Below are positions 1 through 14,191 of a stretch of DNA of 64,000 nucleotides, one piece after another. Made by a program: the position numbers and the translations under genes. The stretch's first letter is position 1. Each line of letters begins with the position of its first letter. The DNA is taken from positions 1,365,803 through 1,429,802 of the forward strand of contig ML996687.1 of NCBI GenBank assembly GCA_010356995.1. The letters run 5' to 3'. The notes under the pieces are model-generated. The model was not told the DNA's origin. It was given only the letters and a program-made list of their open reading frames with translations, and did no database searches. The stretch is from Trichodelitschia bisporula (taxonomy: Eukaryota).

Positions 1-920
1 CAGCCCGCCCATAGAATCCGGAGAATGAGCAGACGCTATTGTGAATGCAGCTTTTTTGTATATATTGCACATTTGAACAGACTCTGCTTGCCAGTCCTCC
101 TTCGAGTCTTGGATGATGCACAAAGAATCTATCCAGAGGTAACGCTCCCTCATGCGGCGGGTGACAAGCACAGCATCGCGAAAGACCTTTGGGATTTCAT
201 TTAGGGGAATTCCGTTCATTCGGTCTGCAAGAGTATCGCTTTTTGTGGTGAGGGTTGGCGTTAAGCCCCAACGGTGGCTCAGGGCAACATACGATTTCTG
301 GTATGGCTTGAAATCCGGAGTTCTGGTGTCGACAAGGCGTGGGTCTTCCGTTTCAGAGCCAACATCGATGACCCGTGAAGGAATAAACCCGTCCTTAAAC
401 GGCTTGGGACAGTTTTTGTGGCCGGTACAACACTCTTGCATCCAAAAGTCGGCCATACGGAAGCTTGCTTCTGATCCCGTGTTCTCGTTTGGAAGTTGGG
501 CGCATTCTTGAAGTACTTCAGGAAGCCCTTTCTGCACTTACACCTCCATGAGCTTTTATAACTCCTGGAGGTACAAAACATACCGGAATCCGCCCAGCCA
601 TAGAACATTCCCGTCGTCCGCGGCTGAAAGAGGGGTTGCCCGCTGATATCGGCGAAGGACGCCCGCAAATTTGGCATATTTTGGTCGGGCTTCAGTTCCA
701 GAGTAACCGTTGATTCATCCGTCAGCTTCTCTACCTCGTGCGGCCAGAGGCTGTGCCAGATGTTCAAGCATATCAAACATCGTGCCTCAGCACATCGCTT
801 GAGCTCATCAGCATGATGGAGGGAGAACGAAAAATTTGGCCAAACGAAGGGCTCCCCGGGTTTCTGATCAGAGGAAGACAGAGCTTGCGCCGCAAATTCT
901 TGACATTTGCGGCAGAGCAT
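1..920 (-). CDS. HET (heterokaryon incompatibility) domain protein, 3' part outside window
   Basis: Starts MLCRKC...HH..L..CA..CxIC, an N-terminus typical of this family. After a probable intron (~532-583, GTATGT donor) the minus strand reads PSRVIDV...YVALSHRWG...IPKVFRDAVLVTR..RYLWIDSLCIIQDSKEDW.AES..MCNIYKKAAFTIAS, the canonical HET motifs. Confidence 0.9.
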
Positions 921-2257
921 GATGTCATGGTGAGTCCATAAGTTTCAAGAGGAGGAAGGGGGGAAATGGAGTCGCTAAAGAGGGGGGGGCTTGATGCGGC
1001 CGGCTTCACGTTGAACCGTCCGGACTGTGGCGCAGCAGGAAGGCTGTGAGCCGACAAGGCGATATCACGTGCATCACCCGGCTGAATGTCGTGAACTCTT
1101 CATTTCGAGCACTTTGCTGAGAAACAACGTTATGACTAGTGCAACTGAAGCAAAATACTGAGTTGAGAATGAATAGATGGCACAGACAGTCTTCAATCAG
1201 GTCGCAAGTGCGGAGCATGCCTTCCGTCGCAGCGCTGTTCAAATCTCCTTCCAAGTTCCTGGGCGACACTCGAGCTTCCTGGACTCTACAACGTCAACGC
1301 GTCAGCGCTTGCTCAGGTTTGAGGCGATCCGAGTTTTCCCGGGCGACTGGAATTCTGTGGGGATCTTGATATGCTCTCGATCCCTCAAATGGCGCACGGC
1401 TTAAACTCTATGGTTCGTGTGGAGCATATGGCAGGAGAACAAAGGCGAAGGACGTCGAAAGTTCGGTTGACGCAAGAGGGCGCAATTGCCTAGACTTTTA
1501 ATATGGCTTGTCAGCCTTCTTCATCCTTCCCGGTCTTTGACCACTCAAGTTCTACCAGGGTCTCCCGGGTCGGTTCGCCCCGTCCCTGGTCTTAAAACTC
1601 CCGAGTAAACGGCAGCTAACCTCATTTGGAAATCACTGCCAATAAGGCTGGTTCGGCACAGGGCGACGGAGTGCGTACGCTCACCTGCTGCTGGACTAAT
1701 CGTCCCTTATTTCGTTTCCTGGATAAGTGCATATGGGGCATCTTTTACGTCCAGCTATCAAAGAACGTGGAAAACTTGGTTGGTTATATAGCAGCTTCAT
1801 CTACGACGAGGAGCCAACTTAACGTGTTATCAGCCTCAATCAGGTCCGCCTGTTCCCGATCGGGAAAAGGTCAACGGCAAACCAAGCGGCACCATCTACG
1901 AACTATTACTTAGCCAATGTCCCCACATTATGTGTGGACGGTAAACGAAGAGCGATACTGGGTAGGTCATTTAGGGTGCCTCAATGTTCGGCGATCGTGC
2001 AGCATCAAAGATCGGCGCAATATGGGATAGATTAAGGCACATAACGCCCAAGAACGATGCACATATTGCACTTCTACCTACAGATCGGGTCACCTTTTCC
2101 GCTCTTTAGAGCGAATGCGTAATCGAATCAATACCATATGACAATCGCAGCGGCATCCAAACCGGAAAGCCCCTCCCGTCTATATCAACCTCCGACGACG
2201 CCCCCCCATCTGAAACCCATCCTTTGCCGATCTCTATCCGCACAATCGCTCGCAATC

Positions 2258-3382
2258 ATGCGTTCCACTCTTTTCTTCCTCGCCGCCGCGGGCTCCACCC
2301 TCGCTCAAGCCCCCGCCTGCGCCCCGCTCCACGTCGTCTACGGTCCGTCCCGCCGCCCCACTCCCTACCCCGCTAACCCCGCACAGCACGCGCCACAACC
2401 GAGCCCCCACAAGCCATCGGCAACGGCAGCGCCGCGGCCTTCGAGGCCGCTGCGGCCGCAGTCTGGTCGCGCGGCTACGGCGCCGCTGGCTTCTCTTTCC
2501 TCGGCAACCTGACGTCCCTGGTGCCCGGCACAACGGGCTACCCAGTTCACTACCCCGCCAACTTCCAGCTGAATGCCAGCGCACCGCGCGGCGTGGCGGA
2601 TATGATCGCCCATCTGGAGGCGCAGGCGAAGGCGTGTCCGAAGCAGCTCTTTGCCCTGGGCGGGCATAGCCAGGGCGCGGGCGTCACGGTGGCGGCGGTG
2701 CCGAAGATTCCGGCGAATATTTTGAGCCGCGTGGTTGCGGTTGCCATGTTTGGCGGGCCGGCGTGTCCCGCCTCCGTGGCATCGAAATGCAAGTCGTACT
2801 GCAATACTGGTGATACGGTGAGTAAGCTTCAGGCGGGAAGGATATAGCTAATCGGAACAGATCTGCGATCGCAGCTCCAATTCCACCACCCTCAATCTGG
2901 GCGCTCTGGCCAAGGGCATGGGTGGTGCAAAGGGCGCCGGCGGGCTTGCCGACGGGCTCGGCGGCTTCAAGGGCTTCGGTGGCTTCAAGGGCACCCCGAG
3001 GTTTCCGAAGGGTGTGAACGGCACCGCCATTGGCAGCATCGTCCTGCCGAAGGGCAAGGGCTTCAATGCCACTATGATTTTCCCCAAGGGTTTCAATGTC
3101 TCCTCGATCTTCCCCAAGGGTCTGCCGAAGGGCCTGAATATCACTCGCCCGGCGCCGAAGGTGGTGCCCGCGCGTCCGGCCGGGAAGGGCGCCTTTGTGG
3201 ACCTCGTGGGCATTGAGGAGGCGGATGAGTGCCCCGCGGTGGACATTGCGGAGAAGGGCCACACTCCCAAGTCATACCCGCCTGAATCGGCGCACACGGT
3301 TTATAACAAGGACGGCTATTACATCAAGGCGGCGGCGTGCTTCGTTGCCAAGCAGTATAAAGCAGCTGCGGGGACCAAGTGA
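2258..3382 (+). CDS. Secreted cutinase / acetylxylan esterase-like protein (CE5) with large internal insertion
   Basis: Signal peptide MRSTLFFLAAAGSTLA; introns 2343-2386 and 2818-2860; motifs ARATTE, CPKQLFALGGHSQG (nucleophile Ser), MFGGP, YCNTGDTIC (Asp) and SAHTVY (His). Confidence 0.88.
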
Positions 3383-3548
3383 TGGGCAGACTAGGTCGAT
3401 ATAGTGCGGAAGTTAATATCGTCATGACTTAGGGCTCTTGGCCTCGCTCGGCCTTAGTTCAATGTAGTATTGGTTTTGAGTGCGACTATCCTCTGCTGTG
3501 AAGGTACATCAAGCCAATGGCCCCTTCTTCCAGTTCCTTCCCATGCTT

Positions 3549-4105
3549 TCAATCCCACAGATCAAGGGCCCAGAGGCCTGTCTGACCACTCGCCTTGTAG
3601 TGGCGGTTCCCCATTTGGATAAAACAAGTATCTGCATCGGGGTAAAAAACTTTGGCACCGCTTCTCATGAGCATCTGCTGCGAGATGAGATTTTTACCGG
3701 CCCCTGGCGCGTATAAAACATCCGTCAAGATCATCTCGACTTTCCGGTCACCAAACTTGCAATTCAGGACGACTGTCCCAAAGGCTGCCGGCCTGACGCA
3801 CCCCTTGCCGATCCCCACCATGGTCGGGAGGTTGTTGTCCGGATACATGTTAATAAAAACCGAGGAGTCCATGAGCAGATGGAGGTTTGCTCCTGAGTCA
3901 ATGATAAAGCTCTTGGGCCTGAGCTCGTTTGAGGCAGAGAGGATGAGGCTTCCATGGGTGGGTGAGCAGTCGGCCAAGCTCGAATACTCAGACTGCGCCA
4001 TATCGGACACTGCATGAAGTCAGTCAAGTCTGTTATGAGAAGTTGGAACGCAAGATGGAAAGGCTTACTGAGAGTCAAGTGCTTGTACTGCTCCGGAGAA
4101 GTCAT
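3549..4105 (-). CDS. Stand-alone Ty1/copia-type aspartic protease domain protein (165 aa, one intron)
   Basis: Exon 4105-4069, intron 4068-4010 (GTAAGC...CTGAC...CAG) and exon 4009-3549 join in frame (498 nt). Motifs FIIDSGANLHL, GTVVL and LTDVLYAPG..KNLIS match the copia protease beta-barrel. Confidence 0.8.
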
Positions 4106-4489
4106 TGTCGAGGCGGTCCTGGGTTGGTAAATAGAAATAGATGTGATGCTCAAGGTTGTCAGTGTATAAATAGATACCTTATTGAATAACTTGTGAGAAC
4201 TCTGTCTAAATCCTCACAGCGAGAATGGTAAGTGTTTGAAATCTGGAGATCAATTTTCTAATGCATTTTGCTAAGACTGTGGCTGACACAGACGTTCGAG
4301 ACACAATTTCTGGCACTTCAGTCTCGTGTCACACATTCACAAGCTGTGAACACGGTTCGGCAGGACAATGATGCTTTCACCGTGCATTTCTCTTCCATTC
4401 TCACAGACCACTCAATCTTCCGTTCAGGCGGCCTCTGGAATGGTCCACTCGCAGGAAACCAACCACCTGAAAAGGCCATGACGAAGGAG

Positions 4490-4800
4490 AAATGAATCCG
4501 AGACTTGGGTTATAAGGCGCTGTAAGGGTTTCGGGGTGGAGTTGGCAGCCGCGGCCTAGTCGTGCACTTTGGCGATTTGGGACTTCAGAGCTTGGTTCTC
4601 CGAGTTGATGAGCTTGAAATTCGCGTCGGCGGCGACCAGCATTTCTTCGGCCTGCTGGATGTGTAGTGCACAGTGCGGCTGGACGAAGAGTTGAAGGTGG
4701 CATTTTCAAGCGATGGCAGTTGAGACGCCAACAGTTGGTCCCGTTCGCGTTCTCGGTCTGTCCGTCGGTTTGAGGGTGGTATGCTGAAGAGGGCTTCGGC
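4490..4800 (-). mobile_element. Degenerate LTR-retrotransposon integrase fragments
   Basis: SSAYHPQTDGQTENAN (Ty3/gypsy integrase signature) at ~4745-4795 and TAPYNP (copia-like integrase) at ~4506-4523; no intact pol ORF or LTRs seen. Confidence 0.6.
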
Positions 4801-5456
4801 TCGCACTGTAGTTTGAGCCCGAGTTGGACGACGGGCGCTGCGGACGACGGCGCATCCGACATGTCGATGTCCCTGTTCTCGGCGTACTTGACGGCCGGCC
4901 GCGCAAGAAGCACCCAGTGGCCTTGAACGGTGGCCGATGCCACGGAGCCGAGGTCCGCGTTGCCATACAGTACTGTCGCCAGGTTGCCGAGAAACCCCCC
5001 CCGAGGGCTCTGTGCTTCCTTGCAGGTCCAGTGAATGGCCTGTGGGGGTAGGAGCGTCATGTCCAGCGGAAACAAGCAGCCTGGAGGCAGATTCTGGGTA
5101 GGGTGAGGTCTGATCCTCTCGACCCACGAGCCGATGCCGAAGTGCCGAAATGCTGAAACAGGGCCTCCCTAAATGGCTTCATCAGCATCGAGAATAAGAA
5201 TCTGGAACTTCGGGTACTCACCCATTTGAAACCGAGGGTATGTTGCTTCTATGCAGGCCCGGCCTCTGTTCATATATATTGCTGCTGTTGTGATGATTCA
5301 TCGTTTGCGAGTAGCGATTCTTCGACGCGAAATGTGAATAAACTGGACGAAGCTGCCTCGCGGACGCCGGCGTTCAACGGGAGAAAAAGAGAGAGGAGCC
5401 ATCGCAGGCAATGCAGGCAATGCAGACCATGAAAATGACAGGGATGAGGGAGGTAA

Positions 5457-5840
5457 TTATAGTAACGGAAGCAGTGATGGCGGAGAAGATGATGTTAACC
5501 GGTTGTGCTGAATGAGAGTTTTGAATGGTGGTGTTAACTGAAGTTGTTCAAGGTGCCCGTTCGTCAACTCAAAAACTTCGTTACGTGCCTTTGGGTTGAG
5601 TGAGAAGGCTCGCTGCGGGGTGGAGCAGAAGCGGTCAACGACTTCATCGAACTTGGCCCTGTTATAGAACAAGGCTGCCTTCGGAGCACGTGGGTCGTCC
5701 TTAATCAACTGGGAGACACGATTCCAGGGCGCAAGGGTTGCTGGAGTATGATGCTGACTGATGTTGAGGGATGAAGCAAGAGGAAGAAGTTGGAGCAAAC
5801 GGTGGGATTTGAAGGAGGGGGATGACACAAATGACCCCAT
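5457..5840 (-). CDS. Possible small hypothetical protein (127 aa)
   Basis: ATG-initiated open frame MGSFVSS...; no recognisable motif. Confidence 0.2.
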   Translation of the reverse strand: MGSFVSSPSFKSHRLLQLLPLASSLNISQHHTPATLAPWNRVSQLIKDDPRAPKAALFYNRAKFDEVVDRFCSTPQRAFSLNPKARNEVFELTNGHLEQLQLTPPFKTLIQHNRLTSSSPPSLLPLL

Positions 5841-6271
5841 TTCTTGGCAACGATTGCTGCTTTGGGTTTGGCAGCTCAACAAAATGGCCGTTTGGTGAGC
5901 GGGGTAGTGAGGGGCGATCTTCGGGGTCCAGGGGAAGGGAGGAGGGAAGGTCGCAAGTTCTGGGAGCTTGACGTCAGACTTGTAGGTGAATGCTCTTAGA
6001 GCATGCTGTAAAGCCCAGGGCGGGTTCGAAGATCCAGCATTAGCAGTCTTTCGTAGTTCCTTTTTAGTGTGCAATGGTAATGCATGTAACTGGCGGCATA
6101 CGGAGATGGACAGGACGAAGAAGAGGGCAAAGCCAGGACGCCGGAGATTTCAAAGAGTATCTGCCCACTACATTACAAGCACCATTCTTGATCGTCTCAC
6201 AAAACTGTGTTTGGTCTTCGTCTCTCCAAGAGAGTAGATCGTTCCAAAAAGCTTCCATTCCTTGCGACCGC

Positions 6272-9200
6272 TTACTTGTCATGCTTCGGCAGCGGCGGCA
6301 AGTCGCCAGTAAATGTGATCTGCATAGCTGCAAACCGTCAGTAAACCGTCCCACCCACAATTCACAAGAGCACTCACACAGCGGAAACGGGAAATAACTC
6401 CCATGATCCTCCTTCATATACACATAAAACCCCCCAGGGCGCGGAATCTTCTTCAACTCCCCCCTCGGCCCCGGCGCCCTCTTCAACCCCTCCAACCCCC
6501 CAACAACCTTCAACATCGCGGCGAGCGCCACACGACTCGCATCCCGGCCCAGACACGTATGCGGACCCACGCCATAGTGGATATACGCGTCGAGCGGACG
6601 CGTCGGATCCACCTTCTCCGGGTGAGGGAAAATCTTCTCGTCCTTCGCGGCGCCGACGAAGGATACGAAGACTTTGTCGCCGGGCTTGACGTGTACGGAC
6701 CGCCCGCCGTCGTCGATTGTCTCTGTGACGCACGACTCGCGGTACGAGCCGAAGGTGCCGTTCAGCCGGATCCCTTCCATGGCATAGTGCAGCAGCGCAT
6801 CATCCGCCTCAGGGGTGTCCAGCTTCGCAAGGCGGTGGATCTCAGGCAAGTGCTCGCAGCCGGGGTGCGAGAGGTAGAAATCCAACAACTGGGTAAACAC
6901 CTGCGCCTGGTTCGGCACCATGGCCGTCGCGGTGGGGAACACCTGGCTCCACGCCGTGTCCTCAGGCGACAGGCCCGCCTCGAGCAGGCGGCGGATCATG
7001 TGCACGCCATACTCAGACAGATAGTGCTTGTTCTCGCGGAAGGAGTCGGTGAGACCTGAGATGAGCCCAGTTATTGCGACTGATTTGACGTTGGCTTCGA
7101 TGAGCTTGCCGAGGGGCGCGGCGATGGCTTTGGCGGCCATGTGCAGGGGGAAGGATTTGGCGGGGTCGAGGTCGAAGAAGACGCAGGTGAAGATTACGGC
7201 GAGGGCCATGTACATTTCGTGTTCGGAGAAGATGCCGCGCGGGTTGTCGGTGGATTTGAGCGGGAGGTTGAACATGCGGGAGGCGAAGTGGACGTGGGCG
7301 AGGTTGCCAACGTCGCGGGTCACGTCGACGAAGTGCTTCCCGCCGATCTTGTACGATTTCTCGTGCAGGAGCTTCAGTGTGATGTACTCGTAAAACTTCT
7401 TGACGTCGCGATGCCAGTTGTCGCGGTAGAGCGACTTGGACATGATCTCCCGCTGCTTCGAGTGCGCAGGAGTGTCGCCGGACAGCATGAACATGCCTCC
7501 ACGCTTGCCCATCAGCTCCTCCAATGTCTTGCCCCACGTCACCTTGAAGTCCTGCTGGCGATCTAGCACCGTCTTTGCCCCCAGATACGTCGTGAGATTG
7601 ACACGGGGCGGGATAAATGCAGGGCGGTCATACGAGTAGTGCGACTCACGACCAAGACTGCGCATGATCTTGCGGTTTTCCGACGGAATGGTCATGGGAT
7701 AGTGGGCGTAGATGCTGTTGGGCGTAAAGTGATTGGGGAAGGCCTTAAGGAACAGCTTGTAGAAGACACAGCCTTGTTCGATGTTGAGGTCATACTGGAC
7801 TTCGTTGAAGCCCCAGCTGGGGTATGTTAGCAGGTACAGTGTGCAATGAGAAGAAGACGTACTTGGTGAGATTCTTCGCATGGTAATCAATGGTGTAAAA
7901 CCGATCGCCACGGACCAAGCATACTGCATCTGACAGAATGGCGCGCGAGATGGTGAACGTCGGTGCAATACCCACGCCCGGTACCATCGGAGTCTTGCAT
8001 TCCTCGGCCACGATGCCGGGGTACATCTCGACAAAATCCGGATGTTCGTACAACCGCCGCAGGTTCTCCGAAATTTCGGGATCCGAGTTGATGCTCTCAA
8101 ATGTCTCGTGAGGCGTAAGCCCAAAGAACTTGCGGAACTCATTCAGAGTCCCCAGGCCCCATTTGCGGGCTTGAATCATGCCGAGGATTTCGACAGCGCG
8201 GAGAGCCTTCGGTACGTTTTTAGCGCCGAAAGAGCCTGGCTGGTTAGCAGAATGCGGCTAAAACTAGGGAGTAACGAACCAGAGCAATCATCGATGCTGT
8301 CCGCCAGAATATTGACCAGATCGTCATCATTATACTTGCCATCCGCGCCCCGCTGCATCTTCGCAAACGGCCGCTTAGACGGATCCGGATCCAGGCTCTT
8401 CGCCCACTCTGACAGGCCGGCCAGGAGATCCGGCATAGGCACCTCACTCGCTGGCTTGCCAAACATCTCCTTGTACATTTCCTCCGTCCAGGCTTCGTCA
8501 CGCTTGGACGTACAGGAATGCCACCGGTACACCAGGTTGAATTCGGCAGACACTTGATTTCCGACACCGCGGGGCGTTCCGTCCTTGCCGAACATCTTTT
8601 CCATGTGCACGCGCGGATCCAGCGACCAGGTTGTGTTGCTGCGATTCAGGTTGACAATGGTGCGAAGGTAGTCACCCAGCGTGATGTTCATGTACAGACC
8701 GCATGTAATCAGCCGACCCGTCTGGAACAGATCATTGTCATATTTCGCCCAGGCCTTCTTTACACGATCCGGATGCAAGTCCGCGCATGGCTTCGTGAAG
8801 CGACCGTTCTCGTTGATCATCGCCAGCTGTTCGACAACATAGTTATGGAACCGGTTGAACATAATCAAGAGCACGCCGCAGCCGGGTGGAAAACCCAGCA
8901 TGCGCTCCTCAGAGAAGCAGTCTGGCTTGAGCTTCCCGTCCTTGAAGGTGCGGATCTGGTCCTGGTCGGCCTGGACATCACCATAGAGCGGCGAAAGGTC
9001 GAGGTATGACGAGGTGTTGCTCATGCTAAAGTCATGATGATCGGTCTGGAAGAGGTCGTGAATGATGAGTGACGCCCAGTAAAACAGAACACTGGAGACG
9101 TTGTTCGGATGCTTCTTGAACTCCGCGCGTGCGAAGATGCTGTCAAAGACCAGGCCGGGGTCAGGGAGAGCGCCAGGTTGGACAGTGAGGGGCTGAACGC

Positions 9201-9936
9201 TGCGCGCATACGGGGTTTTTGCCGCGCCCAAGTGGGGGAACATGATATTCTGGTAAAGTTAGAACAGCAAGCAACAAACCAAACTACCTACGTTGTACGA
9301 CCCATCAGCCTGGCGATAGATGAACTTGTCTCCAAGATATCTGCAACAGTTAGAGACGCTCCGAAGACGAACTGGACAATAAACTCACGAAATCGGTGGG
9401 TGCTGCAGCGAGTTCCATAGATCATCCACAAAGGCATTCGTGAGGTCCTTGCGAGCCTTCGAGTTGGCCGGAAGTCCGCTGACCAGCTAAACTACTCAGC
9501 ATCCTAAACGAACGAACTTTCGGCTTTGACCTACCTGAATCACCCGCTCCATGAGGTACGTCTTGTCATTCACCAGCTCCCCACTCGCTTTGGACTCCAG
9601 CACATCCATAAGGGTCTGGACATCCTTAAAGCCCATATTACGCAAGTCGGCGAACAAGCTTGATGGTACTTCCTTCTCGATATAGGTTCCATCGCCGGTC
9701 TGGTTCGGCAGCGGCCGCTGAGAGAGGTGCAGCACCTGAGCGTAGGACTTGAACGTGTCGGCGATGTCCTCCCGCTCGGTGCCAGAGGGCTCCTCCTGGA
9801 CGGTGTTGCCATTCAGATATGAGCTCTTGCGACGCTCAGCCTTAGGAGACGGGGTTACCCCATTGGTCGGCGCAGTGCCATTGGCATCGTCTTTCTTCTT
9901 GTCCCTACGGAAATTGGTGGAGAGTCGGCGAAGCAT
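6272..9936 (-). CDS. ppoC: Fatty-acid dioxygenase-cytochrome P450 fusion (psi-producing oxygenase, PpoC / 10R-DOX type)
   Basis: Starts MLRRLST; 7 exons (introns include 9534-9487, 9388-9341, 9291-9250). Peroxidase domain motifs IIHDLF, DYLRTIV, EFNLVYRWH and RGDRFYT; P450 domain motifs NQAQ, EGIRL and HYGVGPHTCLG; last exon MQITFTGDLPPLPKHDK*. Confidence 0.93.
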
Positions 9937-11606
9937 GATGAGGATGATTCGTAAAACGAGCAATGCAGAGAAGGAAGCTACCCAGGCGGGGATATGAATA
10001 CCTGGGACCTCAGCTGCCCCTCATATGCCGCGCTTCGTGCATCAGAGCTCCGAGCTCCCAGCCTTCCAAAAGCAATATTCGACCCGCTCCCAACCCCGCC
10101 GCTAGGCGCAGAGCGGGGGTCATCTCTGTTCAACCGTTGTACCGTGCGACGGTGCTCGCATATCGCCCAGCAGGAAATGGCGCACAGCGTGTGACGCCCC
10201 GCAGGAGAGTTGCACGACCGGTACCGTACTAGAAGAGGCTAAGCAATCGTCTGCATATCGAGCTGAGGCAATTCAGGTGGCCTGCATTGTGTGGAGACGG
10301 TGCGGCTCACAAAGGCATGGAGCGGGTTGGCAGCAAGGATGCGCAGGACAACACCTGCAGCTGAACGGACCTGATGGAGCGGAGATTTGGAGGCTGCACA
10401 CCGATCAGCTGGAAGGGCGGTTGCTATGGTCGTCACTTGTACGAGTGTCGTTGAATGAACGGCCTGTACTACCGATGTGTTGTTGTCCACCTTTAAGCTA
10501 TCTCAGCAATCGGTTTTGTGTTCAATATCCACGTCAACTGGAGTTCACCGCACTTCGTGAGCTGGCCAGCCAGTTCGCAAGGAGCCATTATCCAGCTGCA
10601 CGGCTTGCCTTCTCGGCCAACGAAGTCGATAAACTAGGGGAGCAGCATGCTTCAAAGGAGCGGGGCTCGGCTGCACGAGTCCCGACAAAACTCTCAATAT
10701 GGACAGGACGTGCACGACTTGCTGCATCGCGCTGCAGGTCGGTGAGTTTGGTGCCAATCGGAAGACCAAGCTTGCGAGGAACGGGCGGACATCAGCTGAA
10801 ACTCAAGCTGAAAAGGTAAAAGCGAGAAGGATGGCAGGCATCGTATGAATAGCGCTTAAGGTCTGTCGGTTCCATGGAGTTGCATACGGATGTACGGATG
10901 TACTGAAGGAAGAGTTTGCGCTGAACGACTTGACGTTGACGAAGTTCTGGAACTCGTGGGCGGATTCCTTCCCGAGATAGTGGCTGGCTGGAGCCAGGGT
11001 TTGACGGCGCATGCCGTTGCGGGGGTCTCCCGATACGGTAGTGATCAGCGGCATCTCGACCGGGTATCGAAGCCACCCGTGCCCGGATGAAGTCGTTAAT
11101 CCTGGGGGAACCGCCCTGAGTTAGCGGGCGATTACCACGGGGATGCGCTAAAGTCAACTTCAATGGCTCCTATCAACCAAACAAAGAGAATTTGATCCGC
11201 AAAGATGCATGTCCAAAATCCCGATTCGGCACTCCCGCTTTCGGCTCGGCAGAAGCTTAACCTCACTTCACCAGTCCTCACATCGGGCTGCGATACCGTG
11301 GGACATGGGCATGAACCAATGCCACTTCAGCTCCCCACCATTCGCCTGTCCCTGCTCTGCTCCAATAATTCCGCTATATGTCACACAACCTCCCGAACGA
11401 ATCTGCGGTCACCCGCCGCCAGTGGCGCGTACTCCATGCTGCTCTGCCGTCCGACATCCATGAGTTGTCGACCCCCCCGCTCGTTGCCCTGCATCATTCA
11501 GCTCCATGGGAGGAGATATGTATACGGACCGGCGACCAGCTGAGTTGCAGCTCCCCGCACTCGTTGGTTGTCTTAATTCTCCGCTCTTGATTTATCGCCC
11601 AACGTG

Positions 11607-13586
11607 ATGGAAGCGTTCCATGTAAGCGATGCTCAGACGAGCAATGTCGAAGACTTCGCATCTGAAAACCGACCGCGGAAGTCATTCGTGCTCTGTTTCG
11701 ACGGCACGGGGAACGAGTTCTCTGGCACAGATTCAGACTCCAACATCCTTAAGATATTCCGCATGCTGGACCGCAGCGAGGAATCTCAATTCCACTACTA
11801 TCAGCCCGGCATTGGGACATACGTTGAGTGCAGCTCGCTTTCGCATACCGGGAAGATCGAGCAACTGAAGTTATGGTACAAGAAAGCCAAGGACTCGGCC
11901 ATCGGAACATCCTTCGACCACCATGTTATGGGAGGATACAAGTTCCTCATGCGCTACTACAATGTCGGCGACGACATCTACCTCTTCGGCTTCTCGCGGG
12001 GCGCCTATACCGCGCGCTTCCTAGCCGAAATGCTCGACCACGTCGGGCTGCTCTCAGCTGGCAACGAAGAGATGGCACGCTTCGCCTGGAAAGCCTTCCA
12101 GAAATGGCAATGCCGAACGGAGCGCACCGAAAAGGAAAGGGCGCAGAAGAAGTACCTGCTCAACTTCATGTTTGCCTTCCGCGAGACTTTCTCTCGTCCT
12201 GTGCGGAGGATCCGCTTCCTTGGCCTCTTCGACACGGTCAATAGCGTCCCAAAGTTCGAAAACGCCTGGATGCAGCGCTCAAAGTTTCCCTATACGGCTC
12301 GCAGCTCAGCGAAGGTTATCCGCCACGCCGTCTCCATTGACGAGCGCCGCGCCAAGTTCCGCCAGGATCTCATTTCGGAGGTGAAGCGGCACGATCCGAC
12401 AAAGGAGGGGCATCACCATGAAAATAGCGGCCTCGCATCGGAAAAGAAGACCGAAAAGGAGTCCCAGCCACCACGCGGCCGCAAACTCGCCGTCCCCTCA
12501 GCCTTCCGCGACGCAGCTGAGACGGTCGGCATACGCTCCCTGTCGCCCAATCTTTCGCTCTGTGACGAAGACTGTGCCTCATCCATTGCCTCACATGACT
12601 CGATGGCGGCGGTGCAGCGCGCCAAGCGGTCTAACACACATATCTACGGCGACGATCCTCCGAGCGAAGAGCAGGATATTTTGGAAGTGTGGTTTGCGGG
12701 ATGTCATGCGGTAAGTTTGCTCTGAGTACCCAGCAGCAGCCCAGCATGGTAAACGTTTGGGCAATGCTGACCATTTTCTCAGGACATCGGCGGAGGCTGG
12801 ACTCTCGATGTCGCTCGCGGCGAGCGCATTGCCCTCTCACACGTCCCGCTCGTCTGGATGGTACGCGAGGCCATGCATGCGGGCCTGAAATTCGATCCCG
12901 TCAAACTGCGTGCTCTAAACTGCGCACCCGAGGACCAAGACCCGAACATCTTTTCAGCCGACGTCGCAGACGCCGTGGCATTCCGTGAACAGGCACGCGT
13001 CCCCACCATCAACATAGACCCCGGCTCGCCGGAACCGGAGAAGGGCGCCAGGGGGCTCGACGGCACGGTTGAGCCCCAGACGCCTCAGCCACAGGGTCAG
13101 ACAATGCGCTCGCGCTTCCACGATGCCTTACACACCGCTGCTATGACTGGGCGGATCCACGATATGTTGAAGTTCCGGAATGGATCGCCGGTGCCCTCGG
13201 TTATAGCGTGGAATATCATGGAGTATCTGCCGTTCCGGCGGATGGATCTGCAGGAAGATGGGTCGTGGGAGAGTATCACGTGGCCGCTGCCTAAGGGGGA
13301 GGTGCGTGATGTGCCGCTGAATGTGTTGGTGCATGGGAGCGTGATCCGGCGAATGCAGGCGGATGAGAAATACAGGCCTGGGAATTTGATTGTTGGTGGT
13401 GGAGGACGGGGCGTGCGGAAGGCGCCGCCTCATCTTGGGACAGGGAAGTGGAAGATAGTGAGGGAGGAAGGTGATCCGGTTGGCGAGCTTTGGGTCAGAG
13501 ACTGTGAGGGCGACGAGAAAGCGGCAAATGGGGCTAATGGGACGTCGAAAGCGAAGAAGAAGAAGGACAAGAAACATAAGATGTAG
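11607..13586 (+). CDS. DUF2235 / Tle1-like alpha/beta hydrolase (putative phospholipase)
   Basis: Motifs VLCFDGTGN, YYQPGIGT, FGFSRGAYTAR, GLFDTVNSV, HAVSIDERR and EVWFAGCHA|DIGGG across intron 12711-12783. Confidence 0.9.
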
Positions 13587-14191
13587 CTTGTGATGGGAGC
13601 AGAGCTCTAACACAGGAAACGACAACTGTGTAAACTGAAGATTGAAGTGGGAGACTAAGAGAGGAAGAGAGAAAGAGAATCTCGGGTCTTGAATACACCA
13701 TGCCAAGTATCATCCTTTGCTCCTTCCTCCTATCATGCGCTCATTACATCATGACCCTTAGTATGCGCCTTCCTAACATATCAATGCTCCTTCCCTGTCC
13801 ACATCAGGTTGTTTGCTCGGTAGCACTTGAACCGCTCCCACCTATTCCCCAGACTCGCACATACTCATCCTGAGGGAGCAGTAATCGGTCACTTGTATAT
13901 CGATGGATTTTAAAATGTCATGCACCGCATAGCAACTGTTGGCGTAACGATCAAATTGGTAATCTAATTGACGATAAAATCTCTACACCAAATTCAAAGG
14001 ACTAACAGTCTGTAGATGCCCTGAACAAGTATCGAGCCACCGCCCTCAAGATTCACCATATAGATCGCTGTCACTGTCAATGTGCCTCTGGCGCTGGGCC
14101 TGGGCCTGTCGCCGTGTCCGTGTATGCGTCGCTTTGCTACACTGTCAGCATATAAACGTAAATCTCAAATTGCGTCAGGCTCCCTTACCGC

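Follow-up and report, generated by a model that had tools for sequence, protein, structure and literature searches.

A solitary copia-type protease reading frame in a fungal genome, probably an expressed retroelement remnant at the proto-gene stage

Background

The protease of Ty1/copia LTR retrotransposons is assigned to MEROPS family A11 (PMC2642776). Here we describe a 165-aa open reading frame (ORF) from a filamentous ascomycete, located on the minus strand of a 64-kb stretch of DNA that was analysed as a whole (hereafter the window). The ORF resembles the Ty1/copia protease in matching the same HMM above its gathering score, in carrying D-S-G and the conserved G, P and N-L-x-S residues, and in its predicted retropepsin-like barrel. 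Unlike that protease, it lies outside any gag-pol polyprotein, begins at a start codon of its own, is putatively interrupted by an intron and stops where the domain ends.

Retropepsin-fold subunits that are encoded by the host, outside retroelements, have been described before. DDI1, SASPase and NIX-1 are non-viral, single-domain peptidases of clan AA in eukaryotes; these families are old or broadly conserved and are related to Ty3/gypsy-like proteases (PMC2642776). The ORF shares with them the host-encoded fold outside a retroelement. It differs from them in being copia-related, in having neither a ubiquitin-like nor any other added domain, and in having no detected orthologues. Among genes of copia origin, AtCopeg1 is a single Arabidopsis gene, copia-derived and host-expressed according to Duan 2008, as cited in PMC3814199. 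Like the ORF it is said to derive from a copia-like element, a likeness by description only, and it is a plant gene. The mammalian genes PEG10 and RTL1 are also retroelement-derived and have kept an aspartic protease motif, as the ORF has. Both, however, descend from Ty3/gypsy elements, have retained gag, are shared by therians and have a demonstrated function, whereas the ORF is of copia origin and lacks gag.

In fungal genomes, truncated remnants of LTR elements outnumber intact elements (PMC3248453), and the ORF is like these remnants in being a short truncated piece among host genes. Unlike them, it retains one entire domain in an open frame, carries signals for start and splicing, and is covered by RNA. 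A stand-alone copia-protease host gene in fungi was not found in those parts of the literature that were searched, which is no proof of its absence from print.

Results

The protease domain

A preliminary interpretation of this DNA from its letters alone (the sequence-only reading) had proposed a copia protease domain with an intact catalytic D-S-G and a stop codon at the point where the pre-integrase region would normally continue. All three statements agreed with our searches. The domain matched Pfam family Pol_BBD (PF22936) with an E-value of 4.5e-11 and a score of 43.4 bits, the cut-off being 27, over profile positions 1-80 of 81 and residues 38-121 of the open frame (3657-3908). This family is the beta-barrel/protease domain of copia-type Pol polyproteins. 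A placement of the ORF with DDI1, SASPase and NIX-1 was tried and rejected, as Pol_BBD was the sole Pfam family at E up to 1 and the likeness to the Ddi1 domain was structural only.

Relatives set the limits of the copia-type protease domain at 3555-3914 on the minus strand, with the best stretches at query residues 30-149. The catalytic triplet D35-S36-G37 was encoded at 3899-3891 on the same strand, and D-[ST]-G occupied this place in 58 of 66 aligned relatives. In an alignment of 67 sequences, all seven columns conserved at 90% or more were kept in the ORF (D35, G37, G75, P99, N104, L105 and S107). Homology to relatives spanned about 3950 to 3552, and the stop codon fell directly after the family's last conserved strand (...LDLW), where the relatives go on into a variable linker and the pre-integrase motif. 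Alignments extended past TGA 3549 or TGA 4020 showed no true similarity beyond either stop.

An AlphaFold2 model built on the 67-sequence alignment had a mean pLDDT of 88.4 and a pTM of 0.80. Residues 31-150 were modelled as all-beta with pLDDT 88-98, and the first 30 residues were of low confidence. Foldseek detected weak agreement with the retropepsin fold, the top match being XMRV protease (E 3.1e-3). The product of the ORF is thus confidently modelled as a retropepsin-like barrel. Searching PDB by sequence with the protease as query matched no chains at E up to 10, and the ESM Atlas matches comprised one cluster of Pol_BBD fragments and unnamed clusters, with nothing else among them. Judged by sequence and predicted fold, the ORF is a Ty1/copia protease domain of MEROPS family A11.

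Relatives

A HMMER scan of 1.84 billion cluster representatives recovered 283 proteins at E <=1e-3, two at E <=1e-10 and none at E <=1e-30. The best of them, a transposon fragment, had 38% identity, and neither an orthologue nor a relative above 38% identity was found among these representatives. The 283 relatives are copia gag-pol polyproteins or fragments thereof. Pol_BBD was present in all 19 relatives scanned with Pfam. The eight relatives longer than 1000 aa all possessed RVT_2 and gag_pre-integrs, and seven of the eight possessed Retrotran_gag_2 and seven rve, the domains following the order typical of copia. P0007 and P0013, both among these eight, each had two separate stretches matched by Pol_BBD. 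The Pol_BBD score of the ORF was inside the range of its closest fungal relatives (34-70 bits) and below the scores of seven complete elements (61-89 bits per copy), and the latter counts against constraint on the ORF.

The nearest named relatives came from lichen-forming ascomycetes. The remaining near relatives lay on short metagenome or run contigs and were therefore considered to be fragments of elements. A word-indexed protein library, searched in the near and longer length classes, returned nothing at E <=1e-3, the ORF itself included, and none of 130 pattern matches in metagenome contigs was confirmed as a relative. The ORF was absent from the protein collection that contains the neighbouring 219-aa gene call, P0152, of the same 2.03-Mb contig. 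Annotation pipelines often mask transposon-like sequence, and for this reason missing siblings are weak evidence. The sequence-only reading had gone further and held that the protease was domesticated as a host enzyme; this was not borne out by any of these searches, since the scan gave no orthologue or relative above 38% and the word-indexed and metagenome searches were empty.

Gene model

Base-by-base reading and translation of the minus strand gave a two-exon ORF of 495 coding nt, or 165 codons, at 4105-3549. The coding part of the proposed exon 1 (4069-4105, minus strand, 37 nt) opens with an ATG at 4105-4103 that has A at position -3; there was no upstream ATG within 4106-4240. It is followed by a proposed intron of 59 nt (4010-4068, minus strand) with canonical signals, GTAAGC ... 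ACTGAC ... CAG, in which ACTGAC lies nine bases before the intron end. The same grammar was seen in three introns of the window that are skipped by RNA contigs (GTGAGT ... CTAAT/GCTGAT/ACTGAC ... YAG, 43-53 nt). Exon 2 (3549-4009, minus strand), with its coding part at 4009-3552 and TGA at 3551-3549, holds the entire protease domain, and the minus-strand frame is open over 156 codons from 4019 to 3552. If the intron were retained, an in-frame TGA at 4022-4020 would shut the frame and the start would move to the ATG at 4001, leaving a protein of 150 aa with the same domain.

A putative TATA-like element, TATTTATA, was located at 4165-4172 on the minus strand, 60 nt upstream of the ATG. The motif was rare, with two matches on both strands of the 64-kb window against 0.24 expected from shuffles. 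The gene model proposed earlier, with its own ATG exon, a 59-nt intron that restores the frame and a promoter-like element about 60 nt upstream (at 4172-4165), was thus coherent when checked base by base. A search of Rfam over 3000-6300 gave no matches at E up to 0.1. A scan for promoters and terminators of bacterial type was uninformative, the host being a eukaryote.

The copia-homologous region lies wholly downstream of the intron. The intron and exon 1 therefore represent new 5' sequence from flanking DNA, not an intron within retroelement coding sequence.

RNA evidence

RNA contigs were available from two runs (X1 and X2) of one sample and carry no strand. They skip three GT..AG introns within 4.5 kb, and by these joints alone they were recognised as assemblies of spliced RNA. 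One contig, found in X1 only, covered the ORF at 3523-4009 (strand not given; 487 nt, 0 differences, depth 5.9), with no loose ends reported. Its upper end, 4009, coincides exactly with the base at which the proposed exon 2 begins, and its lower end, 3523, lies 26 nt beyond the stop codon of the ORF. The plus strand lacks a GT at 4010, so the exact contig end fits an acceptor on the minus strand. Neither run had a contig over the proposed exon 1 (4069-4105). Contig cover was missing in X1 and X2 at 3481-3522 and at 4010-4234, which makes uniform DNA contamination unlikely. A splice from 4068 to 4010 had been predicted from the sequence; the contig ending at the acceptor 4009 agrees with it, and no contig spanned the join of exons 1 and 2.

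The contig end at the predicted acceptor points to transcription and to use of that splice site. In the simplest reading, the RNA would come from the minus strand and the assembly graph would split at the acceptor, the spliced and the unspliced branch both being too sparsely covered to be retained. Whereas the identity of the domain, its intactness, its isolation and a contig over exon 2 are shown, we infer that the RNA is of this strand, that its intron is spliced out, that it is translated and that the product dimerises. Absence of transcription had been named in advance as an outcome that would speak against a gene. An RNA contig was seen over exon 2; however, several points count against calling the ORF expressed, as this contig is strand-less, occurs in one of two runs of a single sample, has a depth of 5.9 compared with 62-825 for its neighbours, and is not joined to exon 1 by a seen junction.

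The cutinase contig, which has a depth of 87.4, ends at 3480 in X1 and at 3435 in X2. The cutinase transcript and the protease contig converge, with about 43-90 nt between their 3' ends (3435-3523). As the depth over the ORF is only about 7% of that of this convergent contig, whose 3' end is 43 nt off, plus-strand read-through from the cutinase gene stays a rival source of the RNA, alongside pervasive transcription and an identical copy elsewhere in the genome. An identical copy stays in question because assembly graphs also break at repeat edges, as they do at 5552-5581 and 5718-5747. Under any of these explanations the ORF would be a silent relic, and the match of the contig end to the acceptor would be a coincidence or the edge of a duplicated segment. 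The strand-less contigs, the unseen junction to exon 1 and the missing contig in X2 are all compatible with this. However, the contig stops precisely where exon 2 is predicted to begin, the plus strand has no GT donor there, the interval 3481-3522 between the protease and cutinase contigs is uncovered, and the contig was without reported loose ends. We consider a silent relic unlikely.

Genomic neighbourhood

No second copy of the ORF was present in the 64-kb window, and the parts needed for mobility were absent there. Using tblastn, 150 listed relatives were compared with the window, and matches at E <0.009 were confined to 3507-4055; copia gag, IN and RT were therefore not found in the window. 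No LTR-like repeats of at least 25 nt, direct or inverted, flanked the ORF within 1-14000. We also considered whether the ORF represents a Ty1/copia element as such. This was ruled out, as no unit of gag, integrase, RT and RNase H was found in the 64 kb and no LTRs within 1-14000. Pfam searches of the other 136 stop-to-stop ORFs of the window (3 + 22 + 111) recovered ordinary genes and no transposon domains. The earlier statement that no gag, RT, RNase H or LTR is contiguous with the protease was accordingly upheld by the tblastn and repeat searches. As a description of the surroundings it was right about the missing copia parts but had overlooked a relic of another kind, a Ty3/gypsy integrase, 0.7 kb upstream.

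The relic is a Ty3/gypsy-type integrase core (4743-4823, minus strand; LG.KL ... SSAYHPQTDGQTE..N) within the ORF 4404-5168. It matched two chromodomain gypsy polyproteins with whole-library E-values of 3.2e-3 and 6.3e-3 and a pairwise E-value of 7e-8. It gave no match to Pfam rve at E up to 1, and the search of PDB by sequence gave a chance match only. The relic has decayed to about 27 recognisable residues. It is contained in a spliced transcript at 4235-5581 on the minus strand, represented by contigs from X1 and X2 at depths of 62 and 25, with an intron at 5169-5221 (CT..AC joint). Translation of this transcript in three frames revealed no convincing ORF. The 219-aa gene call P0152 overlies the integrase relic despite this lack.

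Since a copia ORF and a gypsy relic are both present, the short interval between the cutinase and oxygenase genes contains debris of two retroelement superfamilies, of which one piece is intact and the other has decayed until it is hardly recognisable. A gypsy-type integrase relic 0.7 kb upstream on the same strand might suggest that the ORF belongs to a larger mobile element, still recognisable or else non-autonomous, of which the remainder escaped detection. However, an order of integrase then protease fits neither copia nor gypsy elements, and the two relics belong to different superfamilies. The LTR-like repeats sought in 1-14000 were not found, other copia homology is absent from the 64 kb, and host genes abut on both sides. 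A larger element is thus very improbable, and we regard this reading as largely refuted.

Several features of the wider interval were recorded. A stretch of 196 nt at 5552-5747 also occurs inside much longer and deeper RNA contigs, whose flanks on either side are unrelated sequence; one of these contigs shows three differences. The stretch is probably a duplicated gene fragment or a repeat of which another genomic copy is expressed, and it marks the break between the 3' end of the oxygenase gene and the upstream transcript, with contig breaks at 5552-5581 and 5718-5747. The large gene at 6067-9258 (minus strand) combines animal-haem-peroxidase and P450 domains and had the highest RNA depth of the stretch compared (about 825). 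In the order of its domains it resembles the Ppo / linoleate diol synthase type of fatty-acid oxygenase known from fungi. The ORF at 11577-12722 (plus strand) carries the catalytic domain of a Tle1-like (DUF2235) hydrolase (E 1.1e-87), here in a eukaryotic genome. In the gene with the cutinase domain, the C-terminal extension, rich in Gly, Lys and Phe, contains two tandem 30-nt repeats that are 77% alike (3055-3114, plus strand).

The ordinary genes of the window encode a HET domain, a cutinase, the haem-peroxidase and P450 oxygenase, a DUF2235/Tle1-like hydrolase, an Rpb11-like protein and a class 3 lipase, together with Erv1, a class IV aminotransferase, a pectate lyase, a MOSC protein, SHR3 and ATG1. 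The HET gene that the sequence-only reading had placed about 2.6 kb from the protease does exist as a HET-domain ORF at 1-537, but it is about 3 kb away, with the cutinase gene in between. A HET gene at that distance, beyond the cutinase gene, gives no grounds for a role of the protease in cell death. The suggested action against transposons or in cell death, which had been drawn only from this neighbour, was unsupported.

Age and constraint

In the frame of the ORF, 3.2% of possible substitutions yield a stop codon. When indels are added at 5-20% of the rate of substitutions, the probability that the frame stays open under neutrality is at most 0.05-0.1 once divergence reaches 5-10%. The GC contents of the ORF at codon positions 1, 2 and 3 were 0.51, 0.42 and 0.67, compared with 0.54, 0.46 and 0.72 for host genes in the window. 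The frame of the integrase relic, unlike the ORF, had a flat codon-position profile. The RIP indices of the ORF were far from RIP values. Open frame, codon GC and the lack of RIP are sequence features that point away from a long neutral history. The data fit a fairly young fragment of an otherwise unsampled family and a fragment under selection alike.

Discussion

The ORF is best described as a lineage-restricted, retroelement-derived proto-gene that is intact and probably expressed. We lean, by a little, towards regarding it as a solitary and structurally complete copia protease remnant, expressed and at the proto-gene stage. Its history may have been as follows. A Ty1/copia element would have inserted between the cutinase and oxygenase genes, in a gene-dense region of a filamentous ascomycete genome, and deletions would then have taken gag upstream and integrase, RT and RNase H downstream. 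The remaining piece of about 0.56 kb would correspond to one complete retropepsin subunit, situated between the 3' end of the cutinase gene and the patch of decayed fragments. Flanking DNA would have contributed the TATA-like element, a well-placed start codon and a short canonical intron, so that the piece could, as we propose, give rise in low amounts to a small spliced mRNA of its own. This mRNA would be translatable into the 165-aa protein, or into the 150-aa protein if unspliced.

Since all sequence and predicted-fold features of a copia protease subunit have been kept, an active homodimer could form. The Ty1 protease expressed alone in E. coli was catalytically active and was modelled as a homodimer (PMC6952103), and by analogy activity of such a lone subunit is plausible.

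Several observations go against a remnant and nothing more. The ends of the ORF match the ends of the domain, and the ORF carries promoter-like and splice signals. The adjoining gypsy relic is recognisable over some 27 residues, whereas the protease frame is untouched. Furthermore, a young relic should have siblings, yet none above 38% was present in a library that does contain a gene call from the same contig.

These observations bear on the alternative of a true exaptation, in which the ORF would be a stand-alone, homodimeric retropepsin of copia (MEROPS A11) type with its own spliced gene, kept by selection and cleaving host or transposon substrates. The domain is complete, retains every conserved residue and is confidently modelled as retropepsin-like; the stop codon coincides with the end of the domain, and all other parts of the element have gone. 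The TATA-like element, the good start context with no upstream ATG, the canonical intron and the RNA contig ending at the acceptor all favour such a gene, as do the host-like GC3, the absence of RIP and the activity of the lone Ty1 protease with its modelled homodimer (PMC6952103). An open frame is also improbable past 5-10% neutral divergence, yet close siblings are absent from the libraries. However, no orthologue was found, the best relative being a transposon fragment at 38%, and the ORF is not among the gene calls of the collection, though a neighbouring ORF of the same contig is. Expression was very low and confined to one run, and the patch also contains the gypsy relic and a duplicated gene fragment. 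Exaptation is therefore a possible but doubtful explanation. Somewhat more doubtful still is the specific case of a recruited host gene that would be the first stand-alone retropepsin of copia (A11) origin, caught early, with its 5' exon and intron taken from flanking DNA.

In a bold version of this case, the product of the ORF may act on copia polyproteins, through untimely cleavage or dead heterodimers, and so be a restriction factor analogous to p22 of Ty1. The latter is a Gag-derived restriction factor (PMC8458377).

The importance of the locus depends on which of these readings holds. Should the ORF be a remnant and no more, it would matter little, being one among many, and its single use would be as a clean example of a transposon fragment that acquired promoter, start codon and intron. 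Selection on it, in contrast, would make it a retroelement protease of the copia lineage turned fungal host enzyme, and no such case was found in the parts of the literature searched. It would then also offer, at 165 aa, a small and tractable model for the recruitment of retropepsins.
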